Counted from the first letter of the stretch, positions 6,202 to 28,078 are shown. The stretch: DNA of 32,000 nt from Phycisphaera mikurensis NBRC 102666 (GCF_000284115.1 NC_017080.1:600001-632000), one strand, 5' to 3'. Notes: generated by a model not told the origin, from the sequence alone. Numbers and translations: made by a program.

Positions 6202-6908
6202 TGCGATCGTCCCTCGCCCTGTCGCTTGCGCTGCTCGCCCCGCTCGCGTGCCCGTCGCTGGCCCAGCCCTCGCTCGACGACCTGCTCGACCTCGCCCCCG
6301 CGCCCGAGGAGCCCCCGGACCCGACGCCGCAACCCGGGGCGGCGGACCTCTCGGACCTCGCCGGCCGGCTCGACCCGCCCGGCGACGCCGGCGACGCCTT
6401 CGCCCGCGCGCTGGACCGGATGGACGCCGCGGCGGGCCTGCTCGCGGAGGCGCCCGGCGGCCTCCCCGCCGCCCGCACCCAGCAGGAGGTGCTGGACCTG
6501 CTCGACGCCGTGCTCGCCGCCGCGACCTCCCCACCGCCGGGCGGGGGCGGCGGAGGCGGCGAGCCCGGCGATCCGCCGCCGCCCACCGACGGCGACGCTC
6601 CGCCGGGCGGGTCCCAGCCCGCCGGCCCGGCGCCCGGGCCGGCCGGCCCGCCCGCGCCGGGTCCGGCCTCGGCCGCGGCGGGCGAGAACGCCGGGGCGCC
6701 CTCGGCCGGCGCACCCGTCGCCGCGGAGCCGCGGGGCGGCCCGCTGGACGCGACCGCCGCGGGGTGGGGCGGGCTGCCCCCGCGACTGCGGGACGAGCTG
6801 ACCGATGGCCTCGACGAGCCCTTCAGCCCCGTCTACCGCGCCGCCACCGAGGACTACTACCGGCGGCTGTCGCGGCGGGCCGCCGCCACGCCGGAGGGCC
6901 AGCCGTGA
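6201..6908 (+). CDS. Secreted Pro/Gly-rich protein of the BatA cluster (hypothetical)
   Basis: 235 aa. ATG 6201 overlaps the upstream stop (TGATG). Clear signal peptide MRSSLALSLALLAPLACPSLA-QP. Central Pro/Gly low-complexity region. Ordered C-terminus WGGLPPRLRDELTDGLDEPFSPVYRAATEDYYRRLSRR. Its stop overlaps the next start (GTGA at 6905-6908). Confidence 0.6.
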   Translation: MRSSLALSLALLAPLACPSLAQPSLDDLLDLAPAPEEPPDPTPQPGAADLSDLAGRLDPPGDAGDAFARALDRMDAAAGLLAEAPGGLPAARTQQEVLDLLDAVLAAATSPPPGGGGGGGEPGDPPPPTDGDAPPGGSQPAGPAPGPAGPPAPGPASAAAGENAGAPSAGAPVAAEPRGGPLDATAAGWGGLPPRLRDELTDGLDEPFSPVYRAATEDYYRRLSRRAAATPEGQP

Positions 6909-7978
6909 ATCCGCGGACCGTCGCCCATTTCATCGTCGTCCTCGCGTGGTCCGCGGCGCCCGCGCTCGCGCAGCCGGCGGCGGACGCTCCCGCCGCCATC
7001 GAGGCCGACGCCCGCACGGCGCCCGCCGTGGCCCGCGGCCTCGCCTTCCTCGCGGGCGTTCAGCAGCCCGGCGGCGGCTTCCCCGACGGCGGGCAGGGCG
7101 AGAGCACCGGCATCACCGGCATCGCCGGGCTGGCCTTCCTCGCCGACGGCCACCTGCCCGGCCGCACCGGCTACGGCTTCGTCGTCGAGAACGCCGCCGC
7201 CTTCATCCTCGACAACGCCGGCCCCTCGGGCTTGATCGCCGCCGACACCTCGCACGGCCCGATGTACGGCCACGGCTACGCCACGCTGTTCCTCGCCGAG
7301 CTCATCGGCCAGCTCGGCGAGCCCGCCGGCCGCGTGGACGAGGCCCGGCTGCGGGCGGTGCTCGCCCGCGCCGTCCGGCTCATCGTCGACACGCAGAACC
7401 CCGAGGGCGGCTGGCGGTACCAGCCTCGCCCGCTGGATGCGGACATCTCCGTGACCATCACGCAGATCATGGCCCTGCGGGCGGCCCGCAACGCGGGGCT
7501 GGCGGTGCCGGTGCAGACGATCGAGCGGGCGATCGCGTACGTCAAGGCCTGCCAGGAGGACGGCCCGCTGAACCAGGGCGGCGGCGGTTTCCGCTACATG
7601 ACCTCGCCGGGCAGCGCCGCGTGGCCCCGCTCCGCCGCGGGCGTCGCCTCGCTGCAGTACGCCGGCGTGTACGGCGGCGACGAAGTCGAACGCGGGCTGG
7701 CCTACCTGGCCGCCTTCACGCCGCGGGGCGGCGGCAACGGCGGCTTCGGCGGCGGCCAGCCGCACTGGTTCTACGGGCACTACTACCACGCCCAGGCCGT
7801 CTTCCTCGCGGGTGGGAGCCACTGGACCAACTACTTCCCCGACGCGCGCGAGCAGATGCTCGCCGACCAGCAGGGCGACGGCTCGTGGCGCTCCAGCCAC
7901 GGCGAGGCGTACGCCACCGGCATGGCGCTGCTCGTGCTGCAGATGCCCAACCGGCTGCTCCCCATCTTCCAGCGGTGA
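6905..7978 (+). CDS. Secreted prenyltransferase/squalene-oxidase-repeat (alpha/alpha-toroid, terpene-cyclase-like) protein
   Basis: 357 aa from GTG 6905 (4-nt GTGA overlap with the upstream gene). Signal peptide (...FIVVLAWSAAPALA-QP). Repeated QW-like motifs are typical of the prenyltransferase/squalene oxidase repeat fold (QQPGGGFPDG; TQNPEGGWRYQ; NQGGGGFRYM; DQQGDGSWRS), with aromatic-rich helices in between. Confidence 0.85.
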   Translation: MNPRTVAHFIVVLAWSAAPALAQPAADAPAAIEADARTAPAVARGLAFLAGVQQPGGGFPDGGQGESTGITGIAGLAFLADGHLPGRTGYGFVVENAAAFILDNAGPSGLIAADTSHGPMYGHGYATLFLAELIGQLGEPAGRVDEARLRAVLARAVRLIVDTQNPEGGWRYQPRPLDADISVTITQIMALRAARNAGLAVPVQTIERAIAYVKACQEDGPLNQGGGGFRYMTSPGSAAWPRSAAGVASLQYAGVYGGDEVERGLAYLAAFTPRGGGNGGFGGGQPHWFYGHYYHAQAVFLAGGSHWTNYFPDAREQMLADQQGDGSWRSSHGEAYATGMALLVLQMPNRLLPIFQR

Positions 7979-9220: not shown

Positions 9221-10282
9221 TCACCCGCCGGGGCAACCGACCAGCACCCGCGGCAGCCGCTCGTGGTCCGGCAGCACCGCCGCGTCGGCCCAGCCCGCCG
9301 CCACCGCCAGTTCCAGCGCCGCGTCGGCGTGCGACGCCGCCAGCTCGAACGCCGCCCGGCCGCCGGGCGCGAGAACGCCCGCCGCGCCCGCGATCAGCGG
9401 CCGCAGCAGGTCCAGGCCGTCCGGCCCGCCGCGGAGCGCCAGCGTCGGCTCGTGGTCTTTCACCCCCGGCTCCACCGCGTCCCACTCGGCGTCGGGGATG
9501 TACGGCGGGTTGCTGACGAGCCAGTCGAAACGCTCGCCCGCCAGCGGCTCCAGCAGCGACCCTTCGCGGAAGTCGACCCGTCCGGCCAGCCCCAGCCGCT
9601 GGGCGTTGCGGGCCGCGACGCCCAGCGCGTCGGCGGAGACGTCGGTTGCCACGGCGCTCGCCTCCGGCAGGCTCTTGAGCAGCGCCAGCGCGATCGCGCC
9701 GCTCCCGGTCCCCACGTCCGCGACGCGGACCGGCCCGGCGCCGCGGACCGCGGCCGTTTCGGCGTCCGCGGGCCCGCGGTCCGCGGGCGCGTCTCCGCCC
9801 GGCCGCGGCTTCGCCTCCGCCGGGGCTTCGGCTTCTTCCTCACGCTCCGCCCGCGCCCGGACCGCCTGCAGCACGTGCTCCACGAGCGCCTCGGTCGAGG
9901 GCCGCGGCACCAGCACCGCCGGCGAAACCTCCAGGGTCAGCGTGAAGAAGGGCGTGGTGCCGACGAGGTGGTCCACCGGTTCGTGCCGGAGCGCCCGCTT
10001 GACGAGCCCGCGGAAGTCGGCGAGCTCATCGGGCGACGCCGGCCGCTCCGCCTCCATGTACAGCCGCAGCCGCTCGGTCCGCAGCACGTGCGCCAGCAGC
10101 ATCTCCGCCCGCACGCGCGGGGACTCCAGCCCGCGTTCCTCGAAGCGCCTGGTCGTCCACCTCAGCAGCTTCCGGGTCGTCCAGGGCTCGTCGGTCTCCG
10201 CGATGGTCGACGCTAGCGCACCGCGCGCAATTTTCCGATCGCCTCTGCGGGCGAGTCGTGCCCCTCGCTTCGTCGGCTGCAT
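9221..10282 (-). CDS. prmC: Peptide chain release factor N5-glutamine methyltransferase
   Basis: N-terminal PrmC/HemK helical domain (WTTRKLLRWTTRRFEERGLESPRVRAEMLLAHVL). PRPSTE motif. SAM motif I VADVGTGSGAIALAL. Catalytic NPPYIP motif (LVSNPPYIPDAEW). Start set at the only in-frame ATG/GTG/TTG upstream of the conserved N-terminus (ATG 10282-10280); the ORF itself extends to 10465. It carries a ~45-aa low-complexity insertion before motif I. Confidence 0.88.
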   Translation of the reverse strand: MQPTKRGARLARRGDRKIARGALASTIAETDEPWTTRKLLRWTTRRFEERGLESPRVRAEMLLAHVLRTERLRLYMEAERPASPDELADFRGLVKRALRHEPVDHLVGTTPFFTLTLEVSPAVLVPRPSTEALVEHVLQAVRARAEREEEAEAPAEAKPRPGGDAPADRGPADAETAAVRGAGPVRVADVGTGSGAIALALLKSLPEASAVATDVSADALGVAARNAQRLGLAGRVDFREGSLLEPLAGERFDWLVSNPPYIPDAEWDAVEPGVKDHEPTLALRGGPDGLDLLRPLIAGAAGVLAPGGRAAFELAASHADAALELAVAAGWADAAVLPDHERLPRVLVGCPGG

Positions 10283-10366
10283 CGCCCTGCAGGGGCAGGG
10301 CTGCTTCGCCTCCTCACGAGGAACACGACACGCGGACGCAGGCCGATCGGAAAATTGCGCACGATG
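10219..10366. repeat. ~148-bp imperfect palindromic element (MITE/REP-like) overlapping the prmC start
   Basis: The arms are inverted repeats: CACCGCGCGCAATTTTCCGATCG (10219-10241) and CGATCGGAAAATTGCGCACGATG (10344-10366). The core is 17 bp perfect, 21/23 overall. The interior is partly self-complementary (10241-10260 vs 10324-10343, 14/20), with the centre near CCCTGCAGGGG (~10285-10295). Confidence 0.7.
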
Positions 10367-10368
10367 CT

Positions 10369-11807
10369 CTAGCAGGCCGCTGCAGAAACCCACTGCCGGA
10401 TCGTTGGCTTGAGGCACGGGGGTTGTCTGCGAATTCGTCGGCCAGCGGCGGGTGATCCGCCGCATCGTCGGGGGATTTTCAGCCGCTCGAACGGCGGCAG
10501 CACGGTGGGATCACCCACCGATCCAGCCATCGGCCTCTACGCCGCCATCAGGTTCCTCAGCCTCACCAGCGTCAGCCCCGCCGCGGCGATGTGCCACTGC
10601 TGTTGGATCCGCTTTCGACCCACCAGACGCGCCTTGCTCAAGAGTGCGTGGCTCTTCAACCAGCCAAACGGCTCCTCCACTTTCTTGCGTTTCCGCTGGC
10701 TGATCGCGTAGCCGCGGTCCCGCAGCTTCCGCCGGAAGTTGCGGAGCCTGGCCGCCAGTTTCGGCCGGTCCGCCTTCTTCGGCCCCCTCCGCCCGCCGGG
10801 CCGACGCTCGCGGCTGGGGGCAACGTGCGGGGTCGCCCCCCGGTCTTCGAGCTCGCGAAGAAACGCGCCGGCGTCGTAGCCGGCGTCGGCTCCGACCGTG
10901 CGGGCGCTGATCCCGTGGGTCGTCTTGAGCGTGTCGACCAGTTCCAGGGCCGTCTCCCGCTCAGCGAAGCCGTTGGCCTCGGAGAGCTTCATCCCCACGA
11001 TGATGCCGCTGCGGTTGTCCACCAGCAGGTGGCCCATGTGCGAGAGCTTGGCGGGCTGGCCGTCGCCCTTGCGGTAGAGCTTGGCCTCCGGATCGGTCAC
11101 GCTGCGGTGCGTGGCGTTGCTGCGCTTCTGGCCGTGGAAGTCTTGCTCGGGGTTGCGGCTCTTGAAGCCACCGGTGCCGCCGGGACCCTTGTCGTGGTCC
11201 TGATCGTCGCCGCCGCAGTGCTGCTTGCGGGCTTGAGCGGCATCGGCGGTGGCGTTGGGCACGAAGCTCTTGATGGAGCCGTGGCTCTCGATGAGCGTGC
11301 CGTCGACGCTGAAGTGCTCGGTGGAGACCTTGCCCGTGTCGATGGCCAGCTTGGTGACGGCGGTGAAGAACTTCTCGGCGAGCTTGTGCTTGATCAGCCG
11401 GTCGCGGTTGTGGGTGAAGGCGGTGGCGGCGGGGACCGGCTCGGCGGGGTCCATGCCGCAGAACCACCGGAACACCAGGTCGGTGTCGAGGCGGTCGAAG
11501 AGCTTGGCTTCGCTGGAGACGCCGTAGAGCGCCTGCAAGAGCATGAGCTTGAGCAGCCGCTCAGGCGGGACACCTGGGCGGCCCACGTCGGCGTAGGCCG
11601 CGTCGAAGTCGGCGGTCATGTCGCCGAGGATGCGGTCGACGATCCGGCGAATCGGCCGCAGCGGGTGGTCGGGGCGGATGCGTTCTTCGAGGTCGATCGC
11701 GAAGAACATCGGGGACGAGGAAGCGACGCGGCCACGCATGAGAAGGCTCCTGAGGAAGAAGCCTCAGAAGTTAGCGCCATGGACAGGGTTTTGCAGCGGC
11801 CTGCTAG
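10369..11807 (-). mobile_element. Intact IS5/IS1182-superfamily insertion sequence (~1.44 kb)
   Basis: Terminal inverted repeats CTAGCAGGCCGCTGCAGAAACCC (10369-10391) and GGGTTTTGCAGCGGCCTGCTAG (11786-11807); 16 bp are perfect and there is one 1-nt indel overall. CTAG at both ends fits a YTAR/CTAG target duplication as in IS5. A single transposase ORF fills the element. It looks less GC-rich than its flanks. Confidence 0.85.
10537..11739 (-). CDS. DDE transposase, IS5/IS1182 type (InsH-like N-terminal domain)
   Basis: 400 aa. The N-terminal InsH/DUF772-like region reads FFAIDLEERIRPDHPLRPIRRIVD ... LLKLMLLQALYGVSSEAKLFDRLDTDLVFRWFCG. DDE candidates are FSVDGTLIES, VGADAGYDAGAF and KKVEEPFGWLKS. 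The typical C-terminal tail reads LSKARLVGRKRIQQQWHIAAAGLTLVRL. An AGGAG Shine-Dalgarno lies 8 nt upstream of ATG 11739 and is partly buried in a CTGAGG-N6-CCTCAG hairpin (11753-11770). Confidence 0.9.
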   Translation of the reverse strand: MRGRVASSSPMFFAIDLEERIRPDHPLRPIRRIVDRILGDMTADFDAAYADVGRPGVPPERLLKLMLLQALYGVSSEAKLFDRLDTDLVFRWFCGMDPAEPVPAATAFTHNRDRLIKHKLAEKFFTAVTKLAIDTGKVSTEHFSVDGTLIESHGSIKSFVPNATADAAQARKQHCGGDDQDHDKGPGGTGGFKSRNPEQDFHGQKRSNATHRSVTDPEAKLYRKGDGQPAKLSHMGHLLVDNRSGIIVGMKLSEANGFAERETALELVDTLKTTHGISARTVGADAGYDAGAFLRELEDRGATPHVAPSRERRPGGRRGPKKADRPKLAARLRNFRRKLRDRGYAISQRKRKKVEEPFGWLKSHALLSKARLVGRKRIQQQWHIAAAGLTLVRLRNLMAA

Positions 11808-11854
11808 GCCGGGCACCGCGGGGCTGCGGAAGCCGGGTCCGGCCCCCCGCGGCG

Positions 11855-12736
11855 TCACGCCAGCATCGCCGAGAGCCCCGGGCGGAAGACGACCTTGCCG
11901 TCGACCACCACCAGCTTCGCGTCCAGGTGCATCCGCACCGCCTCGGCGAGGATGCGTCCCTCGAGCTTCTGGCCCTTGGCCCGCACGTCCTCGGCCCCGT
12001 CGCGGCCGACGTCGATCGGGAAGACGTCCTGGAGGATGATCGGGCCCTCGTCGAGCTGCTCGGTCACGTAGTGCGCGGTGCAGCCGGCGACGCGGGCGCC
12101 GGCCTCCCAGGCGCGGCGGTACGGGTTCGCGCCCGGGAAGTGCGGGAGCAGCGAGGGGTGGATGTTGATGATCCGCGAGGGGTACGCCGCCACCAGGTCC
12201 GGCGGCACGATCTGCATGTAGCGGGCGAGCACGACCGTGGCGGCGCCGTGCTCCTGGAGCTGCTCCCCGAGCCAGGCGAAGTGCGCCGCCTTGTCGGTGC
12301 TCGCCTTCCACGCGAACGGCAGGCCGGCCTCGGCGGCGACCTCCTGCAGGTCGGGGTGGTTGCCCAGCACGCAGGCGATCCGGCCGCGGAAGCCGTCCTT
12401 CTCCCAGCGGTCGATCAGCACGTCCAGGCAGTGTTGCTCCTTGCTGACGAGCACGGCGACGGCCTGGTCCTTCGGAGACGACGCGAGCGCGACGCGCACG
12501 TCCATGCCGATCTGCCCGCCCTCGGCGACGAGCTCGGGGATCAGCCGCTCCAGGCCGGTCTCGGGGTCGAGCTCGGCGAGGTCCACGAGCATGTCCATGA
12601 GGAAGCGACCGCCGGCGACCTGCTGCTCGAGGTCCAGGATGTTGACGCCGTGGCCGGCGAGGTAGGTGGCGAACCGCGCCACGACGCCCTTTTGGTCTTG
12701 ACCGGAGACGGAGATGACGGCGCGGATCTGGTTCAT
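11855..12736 (-). CDS. purU: Formyltetrahydrofolate deformylase
   Basis: 293 aa from ATG 12736. N-terminal ACT domain (VISVSGQDQKGVVARFATYLAGHGVNILDLEQ). Formyltransferase core (VLVSKEQHCLDVLIDRW ... VVLARYMQIVPPDLVAAYPSRIINIHPSLLPHFPGANPYRRAWEAGARVAGCTAHYVTEQLDEGPII). Confidence 0.92.
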   Translation of the reverse strand: MNQIRAVISVSGQDQKGVVARFATYLAGHGVNILDLEQQVAGGRFLMDMLVDLAELDPETGLERLIPELVAEGGQIGMDVRVALASSPKDQAVAVLVSKEQHCLDVLIDRWEKDGFRGRIACVLGNHPDLQEVAAEAGLPFAWKASTDKAAHFAWLGEQLQEHGAATVVLARYMQIVPPDLVAAYPSRIINIHPSLLPHFPGANPYRRAWEAGARVAGCTAHYVTEQLDEGPIILQDVFPIDVGRDGAEDVRAKGQKLEGRILAEAVRMHLDAKLVVVDGKVVFRPGLSAMLA

Positions 12737-14336: not shown

Positions 14337-14340
14337 TTCG

Positions 14341-14413
14341 CGGACGGTCGCGGACCGTCGCGGACCGTTGCGGACCGTCGCGGTTGAGGCCGGTTGGCGG
14401 CGGCGGTCCGCGG
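14341..14413. repeat. 10-bp tandem repeat (CGGACCGTCG x4) plus inverted copy; terminator-like region between convergent genes
   Basis: The repeat starts 5 nt after the OMP stop: CGGACGGTCG CGGACCGTCG CGGACCGTTG CGGACCGTCG CGG... . Copies 1 and 2 form GACGGTC-GCG-GACCGTC. An inverted CGGTCCGCGG at 14404-14413 can pair with any of the direct copies. It lies between the convergent OMP gene (stop 14336) and murE (stop 14439). Confidence 0.7.
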
Positions 14414-14438
14414 GGTACGCGGCCGCCGCGGCCCCGCC

Positions 14439-15974
14439 TCAAGAGCGACGCAGGGCCGCGGCGGCCTCCTCGCGGTCGTCGAAGCGCAGCCGCCGGATCC
14501 CGCCGGCCCCGTCGGAGACCAGCTGGTAGTCCTCGTGGCCCTTGCCGGCGATGAGCACGACGTCGCCGGGGCGTGCGCCGCGGACCGCCGCGGAAATCGC
14601 GGCACGCCGGTCGGGCTCGACGCTCAGCCGCCCGCGGTCCGCGGCCGCCGCGCCGGCGGCGGCGTCGTCGAGGATCCGCCGGGGGTCCTCGGTCCGCGGG
14701 TTGTCGCTGGTGAGCACGGCGGTGTCGGCGCCGGCGAGCGCCGCGGCGGTCATCAGCGGCCGCTTCGTGCGGTCGCGGTCGCCGCCGCAGCCGTACACGA
14801 CGATCAGCCGGCCGGCGGTTGCCGGCCGCAGCGCGGCGAGCACGCGCCCGAGCGCGTCGGGCGTGTGGGCGTAGTCCACGAGCACGCCGGGGAGGGCGGC
14901 CGGGTCGGCGTCCGCCGGCGGGGCGACGGGTTCGAGCCGCCCGGGCACCGGGGCGGCGGCGGCGAGCGCGGCGGCGAGGGCCGCGGGCGTCGCCGCGCCG
15001 GGGCGGCGGCGGGAGGCGACGGACCAGGCGGCGGCCACCGCCTGCAGCGCGTTGCTCACGTTGTGGAGGCCGCCGGTGGTAAGCGTCGCCTCGAAGCGCC
15101 CCCAGGGGCCCGCGAAGGCGGCGGCGGCGGAGGTGGCGCCCAGGGAAGCGACCGCCGCGGTGGCGTCGGCGCCCGCGGCGTCGGCGACCGAGGTGCGCAG
15201 CACGCGGTCCCGCGGCGCGGCGCCGGCGAAGCGGCTTGCGGCCGGATCGTCCGCGTTCACCACCGCCACGCCGTCGGCGGCGAGCTGCCCGAACAGCCGC
15301 GCCTTCGCGTCGGCGTAGGCCTCCATGGTGCCGTGGTAATCCAGGTGGTCACGCGTGAGGTTCGTGAACACGGCGGCGGCGAAGGACAGGCCCGCGGTGC
15401 GGCCCTGGTCGAGCGCGTGGCTGGACGCCTCCAGCGCCGCCGCGGCGAGGCCGTTGCCGCGCATCGCCGCGAAGTGGCGGCGCAGGCCGATCGCCCCCGG
15501 GGTCGTCAGCGTCGCGGGCGCCGGCCCGCCGCCGGTGTCGACGCAGACGGTGCCGAGCAGGCCGCACGGCACCCCGAGCGCCGCGAGCAGGTGCCGGGTG
15601 AGCGTGGCGACGGTGGTCTTGCCGTTGGTGCCGGTCACGCCGACGAGGGCGAGGCCGTCGGCGGGGCGGCCGAAGAGAGCGTCGGCGACGCGGCCGGCGG
15701 CGGCTTGGTCCAGCGGCCGTCCCGCCGGCATGCGGAACAGCGGGAGCCCGGCGCCGGCCCCGCATCCGGCCGGCACGACCGCCGCGGCGGCCCCGCCGGC
15801 CGCCGCCTCCGCCAGCCGATCCGGGCCCCCGGAGCCGCCTCCGCGCAGCAGGAACAGGTCGCCGGGCTCCAGCGTCCGCGTGTCGTCGCTCACGCCGGTG
15901 ACGCGGGCGCCGGCGGCGTCGCCGACGGGATCGGCGCCCGCCGCGGCGGCCAGCAAAGCGGCGTCGTGCTCCAT
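14439..15974 (-). CDS. murE: UDP-N-acetylmuramoyl-L-alanyl-D-glutamate--2,6-diaminopimelate ligase
   Basis: 511 aa from ATG 15974; the ORF runs on to 16892, but homology begins at MEHDAALL. Mur ligase P-loop VGVTGTNGKTT. LTTPGAIGL, EASSHAL, FTNLTRDHLDYHG and DYAHTPDAL are present. The DNPR motif (LTSDNPRTEDP) is typical of meso-DAP-adding enzymes. C-terminal VVLIAGKGHEDYQ. Confidence 0.93.
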   Translation of the reverse strand: MEHDAALLAAAAGADPVGDAAGARVTGVSDDTRTLEPGDLFLLRGGGSGGPDRLAEAAAGGAAAAVVPAGCGAGAGLPLFRMPAGRPLDQAAAGRVADALFGRPADGLALVGVTGTNGKTTVATLTRHLLAALGVPCGLLGTVCVDTGGGPAPATLTTPGAIGLRRHFAAMRGNGLAAAALEASSHALDQGRTAGLSFAAAVFTNLTRDHLDYHGTMEAYADAKARLFGQLAADGVAVVNADDPAASRFAGAAPRDRVLRTSVADAAGADATAAVASLGATSAAAAFAGPWGRFEATLTTGGLHNVSNALQAVAAAWSVASRRRPGAATPAALAAALAAAAPVPGRLEPVAPPADADPAALPGVLVDYAHTPDALGRVLAALRPATAGRLIVVYGCGGDRDRTKRPLMTAAALAGADTAVLTSDNPRTEDPRRILDDAAAGAAAADRGRLSVEPDRRAAISAAVRGARPGDVVLIAGKGHEDYQLVSDGAGGIRRLRFDDREEAAAALRRS

Positions 15975-16146
15975 CGCCGCAGCGTACGGAGCCGCCGGCG
16001 CCCGCCCGCCGGCCCGCCCGCCCGCCGGCCCGCCCGCCCGCCCGGCCGCGCCCAAGCCGCGGCCCGGAGCGGCCGATAACGCCCCGCCCTCCGCCGCCGT
16101 CCCCGCGGCCCGATGAGTCGGAGAGCGGGCCCGCTCGGCCCGGGGG

Positions 16147-26246: not shown

Positions 26247-26921
26247 TTAGCCGAGCCGCCGCCGCCGCCCGGCCAGCGAAGCGACGCCCGCGAGGACCAG
26301 CGCCGCCGCCGCCGGCTCGGGCAGAACCTGCGCCGTGATCCCGTTGAACAGCACCAGGTTCTCCCGCGGCGTGGATGGATTGGTGAGCACGATCCGCACC
26401 AGCGTCTGGTGGAGGAAGGCCGTCGGCAGCGCGAGGAAGAGCTTGTCGATCCGCGCCGGACCGGGCTCCGCGTAGACCTCCACGCTGTTGGTGCTGCTGG
26501 CCCGCGTCGCCGCGGGGCCGGATCCAGTCCAGTCGCGCACGTTCGTCCCGGTCACCAGGTCGAACGTCGCGTCCGCGCCGCCATCGCCGAGGAAGCGGAC
26601 GCTCCCGCCCGGCCGGTTCGTCCGCCCGAAGCCGACGTTCACCAGCAGGTGGACCCCGTCGACCCCCCTCAGCCCGGGCCGCAGCTCCGCCGCCGGGCTC
26701 CCGCCCACCCAGATGTTGTTCCCCGCCCGTACCGGCAGCGTGAACGGCACGCCTCCGAGCACCACCGCACCCTCGGGCTCGCCGGCCAGGGGGCTGTTTC
26801 CGTTCGCGATCGCGTCGATCGGGATCGGCACGAACAGCGGCACCGCCCCCGCCGCCCCCGCGAGCAGGCACGCGGCGAGGCCGCTGAGGATCAGGCTCAA
26901 AGGGCGGCGCTGCGTCGTCAT
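26247..26921 (-). CDS. PEP-CTERM sorting-domain secreted protein
   Basis: 224 aa. GGAGGAG lies ~10 nt upstream of ATG 26921. Signal peptide MTTQRRPLSLILSGLAACLLAGAAGA-VP. C-terminal anchor LPEPAAAALVLAGVASLAGRRRRLG. Confidence 0.85.
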   Translation of the reverse strand: MTTQRRPLSLILSGLAACLLAGAAGAVPLFVPIPIDAIANGNSPLAGEPEGAVVLGGVPFTLPVRAGNNIWVGGSPAAELRPGLRGVDGVHLLVNVGFGRTNRPGGSVRFLGDGGADATFDLVTGTNVRDWTGSGPAATRASSTNSVEVYAEPGPARIDKLFLALPTAFLHQTLVRIVLTNPSTPRENLVLFNGITAQVLPEPAAAALVLAGVASLAGRRRRLG

Positions 26922-27131
26922 GCTCTCGAAGCTCCTCCGGGTCCACCGCGGCGTGCCTCACGCATCGGCCAGCCGCCGGCCCCAGCGGGAAAACCCCCGA
27001 CGGCGGGCAAACCTACCCGATGCGCCCGATCCCGCCGAACCCCGAGGCCGTCGGAGGCTCGAACCGGTTGGTCGCCGCGTTCGCGGAGACGCGGCCCGCA
27101 GAGGCCCGGCTCAAACCGACGCCGAACCTGC

Positions 27132-27665
27132 CGCGATCCAGCTCCTTCGCGCACAAGCAGACAGAGCGGCGTCGCCGCTCAGCTCTCCCCGCCATGCTGG
27201 CCGCGATAGCTGCGTGGCGACGCCACGCTGTCCGCGTCGCGATGCAGCTCCTTCGCGCACAAGCAGACAGAGCGGCGTCGCCGCTCAGCTCTCGGAGCCA
27301 GCTTGGCCGCGCTAGCTGCGTGGCGACGCCACGCTGTCCGAGCCGCGATCCAGCATCTTCGCGCACAAGCAGACCGAGCGGCGTCGCCGCTCAGCTCTCG
27401 CAGCCAGCCCTTGGCCGCGCTAGCTGCGTGGCGACGCCACGCTGTCCGGGTCGCGATGCAGCTCCTTCGCGCACAAGGCAGACAGAGCGGCGTCGCCGCT
27501 CAGCTTTCGCAGCCAGCTTGGCCGAGTTAGCTGCGTGGCGACGCCACGCTGTCCGAGCCGCGATCCAGCTCCTTCGCGCACAAGCAGACAGAGCGGCGTC
27601 GCCGCTCAACTCTCCCTGCCAGCCTGGCCGCGTGAGCTGCGCGGCGACGCCACGCTTTTCCGATC
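27132..27665. repeat. Tandem array of five ~107-bp units, each containing nested perfect palindromes (BIME-like / structured repeat array)
   Basis: Units start at 27132, 27238, 27344, 27452 and 27559 (106, 106, 108 and 107 nt; the last is degenerate at its 3' end). Every unit carries GAGCGGCG-T-CGCCGCTC and GCGTGGCG-A-CGCCACGC, separated by a variable, also palindromic, segment. The units are joined by the linker CGCGAT(C/G)CAGCTCCTTCGCGCACAAGCA. Confidence 0.92.
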
Positions 27666-27823
27666 CAAAATGTTGTGAGGAATCTTTGCTTTCCCCCTCC
27701 CGCCCCCCAGTCCTCCACCGCCAGCCCGAGGACGAGGTCGATGTGCCCGCGGTTGTGGGAGGCCCCGGCGGGAAAATTCTCCCGGGGCCGCGCCCGCGGC
27801 GTTGGAGCGGCCTTCAGTGCGGC

Positions 27824-28078
27824 ATGAGCACGACCCCCACCGCCTCCCGCGAACGCCCCTCCTTCAGCATCCCCAGCATCGTCGCGATCGTCGCGACGCT
27901 GCTGATCTTCTTCACCGAGGGCTACGACGTGCTGCTGGCGATCGTTGCCATCGTCGCCGGCGTCATCGGCGGCTTGCTGGCCCTTGCGCCGGGCATCCGC
28001 GGCGGGATCACGAGCATCCTCAGCGTGATCCTGGCGCTCCTCGCGATCGTCGTCTCGCTCTTCCAGGTCGTCCTCTGA
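27824..28078 (+). CDS. Small integral membrane protein (hypothetical)
   Basis: 84 aa from ATG 27824. Three hydrophobic segments (IPSIVAIVATLLIFF; VLLAIVAIVAGVIGGLLALA; ITSILSVILALLAIVVSLF). The start is uncertain because the frame is open back to 27020 through the repeat array. Confidence 0.55.
   Translation: MSTTPTASRERPSFSIPSIVAIVATLLIFFTEGYDVLLAIVAIVAGVIGGLLALAPGIRGGITSILSVILALLAIVVSLFQVVL

Follow-up and report, generated by a model that had tools for sequence, protein, structure and literature searches.

A tandem array of inverted palindromic elements with BIME-2-like architecture between divergent genes of Phycisphaera mikurensis

The window analyzed here, a stretch of 32,000 nucleotides of the Phycisphaera mikurensis NBRC 102666 chromosome (NC_017080.1:600001-632000; positions are counted from its first letter), contains five tandem units that together consist of ten homologous short elements in alternating orientation, located between two diverging genes. 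The analogy with enterobacterial BIMEs drawn in the first-pass annotation of this DNA holds at the level of architecture and is strengthened by the existence of another locus on the same chromosome. The explanation that appears best, and to which we give about even chances, is that the array is a BIME-2-like cluster of a P. mikurensis-specific family of REP-like repeats that was expanded by unequal recombination. Membership in a RAYT-associated REP/BIME family is not established.

The array and its units, each of which contains two palindromes denoted X and Y, are located as follows.

27130..27668, no strand: whole tandem array of five units (TRF, alignment and nhmmer, with E of 1e-31 to 1e-33 per unit)
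27132..27237, no strand: unit 1, 106 bp (alignment)
27238..27343, no strand: unit 2, 106 bp, 95% identical to unit 4
27344..27451, no strand: unit 3, 108 bp, with a CC insertion at the apex
27452..27558, no strand: unit 4, 107 bp, with one additional G in the linker
27559..27665, no strand: unit 5, the most diverged one, with T>C in Y and CGCTTTTCC at its end

The tandem units of about 107 bp that had been proposed to start at 27132, 27238, 27344, 27452 and 27559 all align at these positions, with a mean column identity of 91% in a 110-column alignment and pairwise identities of 84-95%, the closest pair being units 2 and 4. TRF delimits the repeat at 27130-27656 (period 106, 4.9 copies, 90% matches, score 850), reports a second period of 215 with 91% matches, and identifies the array as the sole long-period repeat of the window. 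A few unit-like bases are found at each edge, GCCGCGATCCAGC on the left and GATCCA on the right. Amplification as a two-unit block, also proposed previously, is only partly supported: units 2 and 4 are 95% identical, but the alternation rests on three columns, and units 1 and 3 (89%) are no closer to each other than units 1 and 2 (91%).

The array is real and not an assembly artefact. Over 15,754 nt that include the array and its surroundings, the window shows no differences from the draft contig JACHEL010000006.1 (GCA_014207395.1); this second assembly of P. mikurensis carries an identical array. The draft contig stops at about position 11713 of the window, within an IS5-family transposase gene; given that it breaks in this IS5 copy and that the transposase is recorded only for the 3.8-Mb chromosome, the window represents a different assembly, namely the complete chromosome, both assemblies being of the same strain. 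The observation that could point to a collapsed or expanded repeat is that a k-mer-based short-read Logan contig ends 26 nt inside unit 1, which is the expected behaviour at a genuine repeat. Against such an artefact, the probability of which we regard as negligible, stand the same array sequence in two assemblies and the 5-16% divergence among units, which makes unique placement possible.

The array lies within a 902-bp intergenic region (26922-27823) between genes that diverge from 26921 and 27824, in agreement with the previously noted location in a divergent intergenic region of about 900 bp. The flanking genes and the only annotated gene within the array are the following.

26247..26921, - strand: flanking gene for a protein of 224 aa with a PEP-CTERM-like C-terminus (NCBIfam matches weak only)
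27824..28078, + strand: flanking gene for an 84-aa hydrophobic protein (no family match in Pfam)
27303..27530, + strand: ORF PSMK_05570, a GenBank hypothetical protein of 75 aa, wholly within the array (GC3 0.67)

The array is non-coding, as had been deduced from its frame shifts. The units of 106-108 bp shift the reading frame from one to the next, and GC3 of the array is 0.67-0.68 in any ORF frame compared to 0.94-0.97 for the real genes of the window; on these two grounds, a protein-coding array was rejected. PSMK_05570 and the ORF of the second locus, PSMK_21390, are probably spurious gene calls over repeat DNA, and these two GenBank 'hypothetical proteins' can be flagged accordingly. The overall G+C content of the window is 0.77 and reaches 0.84 per kb, resulting in long spurious ORFs on both strands; one such ORF of 352 aa spans the whole array and runs into the 84-aa gene.

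Several other features of the neighbourhood are worth recording. A strong GC-rich hairpin, GGCCCCGGCGGGA-AAATTC-TCCCGGGGCC, is located at 27758-27790, about 35 bp upstream of the start of the 84-aa gene, and an AT-richer patch (27664-27697) adjoins the right side of the array; either could hold a promoter or regulatory signal. The IS5-family transposase gene (DUF772 and DDE_Tnp_1 domains; 10537-11739, - strand) lies in a patch of lower G+C content (0.69 at 10001-12000 versus 0.77 for the window), and the end of the draft contig 27 nt within this gene suggests that the element is multi-copy. Two stretches of about 1.6-1.8 kb (14337-16146 and 6202-7830) contain no convincing gene by the GC3-based ORF filter; the first of these includes two short tandem repeats, at 14338-14383 (TCGCGGACCG, 4.6 copies) and 15999-16053 (a 16-nt CGCC-rich unit, 3.3 copies).

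Each unit consists of a 33-nt linker and a 73-nt quasi-palindrome, the 35-nt arms of which are 77-80% complementary. The two arms are homologous copies of one 35-nt element that are inverted relative to each other; the element comprises (A/G)GACAG, a core of 15 nt, CAGCT and approximately 10 nt more, and each copy carries a perfect 17-bp palindrome, X or Y. The X-type and Y-type elements are arranged head-to-head with 3-5 nt between them, and the whole array is a series of ten such elements in which the orientation alternates, as do the short (3-5 nt) and long (33-34 nt) spacers. The elements and the linker map as follows.

27159..27193, + strand: element L1, 35 nt, with X at 27164-27180 (covariance model R1)
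27265-27299, 27371-27405, 27480-27514, 27586-27620, + strand: the other L elements, with X from 27270, 27376, 27485 and 27591
27199..27233, - strand: element R1, inverted, 35 nt, with Y at 27212-27228 (covariance model R1)
27305-27339, 27413-27447, 27520-27554, 27626-27660, - strand: the other R elements, with Y from 27318, 27426, 27533 and 27639
27132..27158, no strand: linker of unit 1, a small CGCGA-N10-TCGCG hairpin followed by CACAAGCAG, which recurs at each unit start

Palindrome X (GAGCGGCGTCGCCGCTC) is present in five exact copies, and palindrome Y (GCGTGGCGACGCCACGC) in four exact copies and one with the T>C change (unit 5), with fewer than 0.5 copies of either expected by chance; these counts agree with the earlier claim that X is the same in all five units and Y in four. 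Both dyads show perfect 8-1-8 symmetry around a single central base, with spacings of 106 bp from X to X, 48 bp from X to Y and 58 bp from Y to X. Other parts of the first-pass description require modification. The linker recurs in every unit but is not invariant (it reads CAGCATCTT in unit 3 and has an extra G in unit 4); the five pairs of its small hairpin are all invariant and hence uninformative on covariation. A central palindrome, which had been ascribed to every unit, is present in units 3 and 4 and absent from the others. The palindromes that were described as nested do exist, but the design is simpler: after the linker comes one 73-nt quasi-palindrome, with X paired to Y. An additional inverted repeat of 14-16 nt with 86-88% complementarity is confined to the junctions of units 1-2 and 3-4 (27208-27223 / 27234-27249 and 27422-27435 / 27450-27463), where it is created by the variants GATGCAGCT and ..GT. 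It overlaps the left half of Y, creating an alternative pairing in competition with the Y palindrome, and the two linked substitutions at these junctions both strengthen it.

The variation among the units is unevenly distributed. Among the 110 alignment columns, 26 are variable, including 13 in the centre or apex and 7 at the junctions, where most of the substitutions and indels had indeed been reported to fall, 5 in the linker or GACAG, and only one in Y; that is, 1 of the 34 columns of X and Y varies compared to 25 of 76 elsewhere (hypergeometric P = 2.4e-4). Furthermore, X and the reverse complement of Y differ in four positions that make up two symmetric pairs, A-T in X versus C-G in Y and C-G in X versus T-A in Y. 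Both pair differences leave each palindrome perfect and lower the X-to-Y complementarity; by our own estimate, the chance that four random differences fall in this manner is about 0.002. All 8 of 8 pairs form in all distinct copies of X and Y, with slid controls falling to 19-71%, and the X/Y pairing and covariation scores were reached by no shuffle.

The long hairpin shows a different picture. The MFE fold of a single unit strand, for either strand, is one long imperfect hairpin of 73 nt in which X is paired with Y (-55 to -66 kcal/mol per unit, z from -2.4 to -4.6), and the whole array folded as single-stranded DNA yields z = -5.1. The two strands fold about equally, with neither favoured, and folding X and Y as two separate hairpins is less favourable by 6-11 kcal/mol for RNA and 1-7 kcal/mol for DNA. 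The stems of the long hairpin outside X and Y are broken in units 3 and 5, and compensatory changes are found in 0 of its 34 predicted pairs across the five units. Covariation is thus lacking for the long hairpin, whereas the symmetric pair differences between X and Y keep both palindromes intact. Given these compensatory differences and the paucity of substitutions in X and Y, as opposed to the broken stems of the long hairpin, the maintained modules are the two 17-bp palindromes and not the long hairpin as such.

This constraint on X and Y, seen both in the symmetric pair differences and in the 1/34 versus 25/76 variable columns, is one of the arguments for a BIME-2-like cluster, together with the alternation of ten homologous elements with spacers of 3-5 and 33-34 nt and the real, non-coding nature of the array. 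Conservation of X and Y could also come from intrastrand templated repair of hairpin stems and not from selection, which weakens this argument. REP heterodimers with differing stems are common in REP families; large hairpins or cruciforms formed by REP dimers stall replication, and the frequency of their deletion follows the stability of stem pairing (PMC3733652). By analogy, dimers with diverged stems, such as those in the P. mikurensis array, may be better tolerated.

The pattern of variation also bears on a simpler scenario, in which a palindromic intergenic segment was copied once by segmental duplication and then expanded by slippage or unequal crossing-over at each place, yielding a neutral minisatellite with no dedicated machinery and no function. 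The long hairpin without covariation fits such an origin, and mutations might plausibly concentrate at hairpin apices and at junctions, which could yield the uneven substitution pattern. However, the compensatory differences preserve two separate perfect palindromes, substitutions are strongly depleted in X and Y, which are intact at the second locus as well, and the regular inverted-doublet design is hard to obtain by slippage alone. Neutral origin thus appears unlikely, if worth keeping in mind.

The second locus was identified by protein sequence comparison. An exhaustive phmmer search of 1.84 billion representative proteins with the translation of the array in the three + strand frames yielded two matches only, the in-array ORF PSMK_05570 and PSMK_21390 (BAM04298.1), a 70-aa 'hypothetical protein' encoded elsewhere on the same 3.8-Mb chromosome; there were no matches in proteins of other organisms, and a word-indexed protein search with the array translation retrieved nothing. 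PSMK_21390 covers at least two units and, threaded on the unit consensus, reads Y, junction, linker, X, centre, Y, junction, linker, X, centre. Compared to the consensus, it contains at least 8 amino-acid-changing substitutions and one 1-nt insertion, confined to junctions, linkers and the centre, so that X and Y are intact by translation. Judging from these translated sequences, the repeat family is present at no fewer than two loci, and the pattern of conservation is the same at both. The absence of X and Y from the rest of the genome, which the first-pass annotation had considered damaging to its interpretation, is thus not observed. The location of all differences outside X and Y is a further point in favour of a BIME-2-like cluster, although the second locus could have originated by segmental duplication and not by transposition.

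In 37 kb of the same genome (the window and an extra 5 kb), no additional copies of the array were detected by nhmmer with the whole unit. The same holds for single elements searched for with covariance model R1 (filters off), which gives 51-59 bits to each of the ten array elements and no more than 18.7 bits to any other sequence. Scanning of a genome contig collection for the X..Y pattern produced 7 single matches in unrelated taxa that are due to chance according to nhmmer, in a scan that missed even the array of the window itself and so says nothing about the P. mikurensis genome. Pattern scans of metagenomes gave one chance match and those of viruses 0 matches and 6 chance matches, blastn against plasmids and phages detected no array-like sequence, and a literature search returned no description of repeats in P. 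mikurensis.

Relatives were found via the neighbouring 218-aa gene, the two closest ones sharing 84% and 83% amino-acid identity; their syntenic regions contain neither the array nor any tandem repeat within 20 kb. In the closer relative, a 217-aa gene precedes a DUF2780 gene, after which come the genes for DinB_2, shikimate dehydrogenase and an aminotransferase; the order of the latter three matches that of the window. The syntenic site (10654-11345 in the relative) has a single DUF2780 gene between the 217-aa gene and DinB_2 and lacks the segment 25425-28078, which in the window encompasses the array together with the 84-aa gene and two PEP-CTERM genes. Hence the array belongs to a lineage-specific insertion or variable region. 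The two known loci only, the lack of copies in 37 kb, the absence of the family from relatives and that of the whole segment from the closest one all speak for the neutral minisatellite; for the BIME-2-like cluster, the demonstration of just two loci, with no other element in 37 kb, is a point against.

The window ORFs scanned with Pfam and NCBIfam include no partition (parA/parB), replication (rep), cas, or Y1-transposase/RAYT genes. The lack of a Y1 or RAYT gene among them speaks against the BIME-2-like cluster. A CRISPR array was rejected, as it had been in the first-pass annotation, because its elements are in inverted orientation with conserved segments between them and because cas domains are absent among these ORFs. 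A centromere or iteron array was likewise set aside given the lack of parAB or rep genes among the same ORFs, and a tandem array of small-RNA genes because there is no promoter or terminator per unit, no Rfam match and no compensatory pairs in the long hairpin; neither of these alternatives, both offered previously, gained positive evidence. The GGCGWCGCC core is uninformative as a dispersed motif, being common in coding DNA (21 copies outside the array).

Ten 17-bp palindromes could be duplex sites of a dimeric protein, with the resulting nucleoprotein complex regulating or insulating both divergent genes. Perfect 8-1-8 dyads with one central base are typical of dimer sites and are not needed for hairpins; the X-to-X distance of 106 bp is close to ten helical turns, with 48 bp from X to Y and 58 bp from Y to X; the array is located in the 902-bp region between divergent gene starts; and the constraint affects X and Y but not the other stems of the long hairpin. 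Conversely, no regulator gene is adjacent to the array, the nearest one being an Rrf2-family gene about 6 kb away, parA/parB or rep genes were not found among the scanned window ORFs, and there is no sigma-54-type site nearby. Given also that the core GGCGWCGCC is common in coding DNA, with its 21 copies outside the array, and that a second array elsewhere favours a repeat family over a locus-specific operator, a dedicated protein-binding array seems rather improbable. The dyads, the X/Y spacing and the divergent-promoter position would fit duplex sites of a dimeric protein and also cruciform extrusion. Negative supercoiling builds up between divergent promoters, as described by the twin-domain model.

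Another possibility is that the array is transcribed as a long 5' leader of one of the flanking genes or a multi-hairpin ncRNA, similar to the REP325 naRNAs of E. coli, and acts on RNA stability, processing or nucleoid organization. The stable 73-nt hairpin that each unit can form on both strands, with the energies and z-scores given above, the whole-array z of -5.1 as single-stranded DNA, and the end of unit 5, where a hairpin is followed by TTTT on the + strand, are in line with this proposal. So is the sole change in Y, in unit 5, which leaves a G-U pair on the - strand but a C-A mismatch on the + strand, too little to decide the strand. In E. coli, about 80% of the REPs are transcribed (PMC4550694). 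Nevertheless, the array matches no Rfam family at curated thresholds, and a permissive threshold brings up only sub-threshold matches to generic miRNA-precursor hairpins, which are noise; tRNA and tmRNA genes were not found either. No sigma-70-like promoters or intrinsic terminators were detected at 26800-27950, in a scan that planctomycete promoters may not fit, and no sigma-54-like site was detected near the array or upstream of the PEP-CTERM gene. With compensatory change in 0/34 predicted pairs and both strands folding about equally so that no strand is indicated, a structured RNA is quite improbable.

Returning to the BIME-2-like cluster, the following course of events can be outlined. 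The basic module is the 35-nt element; an X-type and a Y-type element placed head-to-head make up a REPIN-like heterodimer, and this doublet with its 33-nt linker is repeated five times. The spread of the family between loci could have been mediated by a hairpin-recognising HUH Y1 enzyme, the candidate being of a class found mainly in Planctomycetes. Local expansion probably involved slippage or unequal recombination among the units, including one or more steps in two-unit register, and recognition of the palindromes, be it as hairpins or in the form of symmetric duplex sites, would account for their persistence. In its present location, the array would most likely be a DNA-level element, a protein-binding and cruciform-prone structural block in a region common to two divergent promoters; such DNA-level action is more likely than a set of RNA genes. 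A bolder version, by analogy with E. coli REP325/naRNA4, would make this the first REP/BIME-type system in Phycisphaerae, comprising low-copy, cluster-forming heterodimers of perfect palindromes serviced by a class 3 HUH Y1 enzyme, with arrays that absorb supercoils or organize the nucleoid between divergent promoters; we consider this version speculative and rather doubtful.

REP/BIME elements are well studied in Proteobacteria and barely described in Planctomycetota. The array is a candidate VNTR marker and a compact test case for the question of whether palindrome arrays between divergent promoters affect expression, with a payoff that is moderate unless a function or the cognate enzyme is demonstrated.

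Among the known systems, mycobacterial MIRU-type minisatellites are tandem intergenic repeats of 40-100 bp that form one family with several loci in a GC-rich genome. The P. mikurensis array shares these features, but MIRUs do not contain inverted palindromic doublets and are located within operons. In centromere arrays of the F-plasmid sopC type, each of the tandem repeats contains a short inverted repeat that is a dimer-binding site. The array similarly consists of tandem repeats each containing short inverted repeats, whereas it is chromosomal and has no partition or replication genes nearby.

Class 3 TnpA-Y1 transposases are found mainly in Planctomycetes and Acidobacteria, and the atypical hairpins that flank their genes have a 5' CnGA foot (PMC6006769). 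These 'REPtron-like' systems and the array come from the same host phylum, and the X stem GCGGCG is preceded by CAGA / CTGA (one per strand), which resembles the CnGA foot; in the array, however, the GA of this tetranucleotide is paired within X, and Y has CnGC. The link to class 3 TnpA-Y1, drawn by analogy, is a lead only.

The resemblance to REPs and BIMEs is closer. REPs least frequently occur between divergent genes, which is a tendency and not a strict rule; some REP families cluster at few loci, as does GTAG-23, which makes up large blocks at a small number of sites in the GC-rich genome of Thermomicrobium roseum (PMC3733652). The array, like the REPINs and REP doublets of Pseudomonas and others, consists of inverted doublets able to form one long hairpin, and as in REP doublets and the GTAG/CGTC REP superfamilies, where heterodimers often have stems that differ and certain families occur largely in clusters, its two stems differ. 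Unlike these superfamilies, it has neither GTAG nor CGTC beside the stems; the conserved flank is (A/G)GACAG (GACAG, with CAGA / CTGA beside the X stem). The absence of these tags and a position between divergent genes, where REPs are rarest (PMC3733652), instead of the preferred location downstream of genes in convergent or unidirectional pairs, count against a BIME-2-like cluster. Architecturally, the similarity to BIMEs, with ten alternating elements and two spacer classes, is closer than was described in the first-pass annotation.

In BIMEs, REPs are regularly spaced with alternating orientation; BIME-2 consist of BIME-1-like units in tandem and bind gyrase, and REP/BIME families are dispersed and of high copy number, with more than 100 copies per genome (PMC2817692). 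Compared with enterobacterial BIME-2, the array shows no sequence relationship and no GTAG tag; its palindromes are perfect 17-mers with a one-base centre, whereas BIME stems are imperfect, with loops or bulges; its long linker (33 nt) carries a small hairpin of its own; and it is known from two loci rather than hundreds, here between divergent genes. The common features are nevertheless extensive. The array is built of short palindromic extragenic elements in the REP size range of 20-40 bp (35 nt, ten copies, non-coding) that represent two diverged versions of one element; L and R copies alternate in orientation; two linker classes alternate as well; the doublet with its linker is repeated in tandem, five times in P. 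mikurensis compared to six repeats of two palindromic units in E. coli REP325; and both are extragenic, cruciform-prone and present at more than one locus. A family unrelated in sequence that has the same doublet-plus-linker tandem design would suggest that this architecture is recurrent or else is imposed by a shared type of hairpin-processing enzyme.
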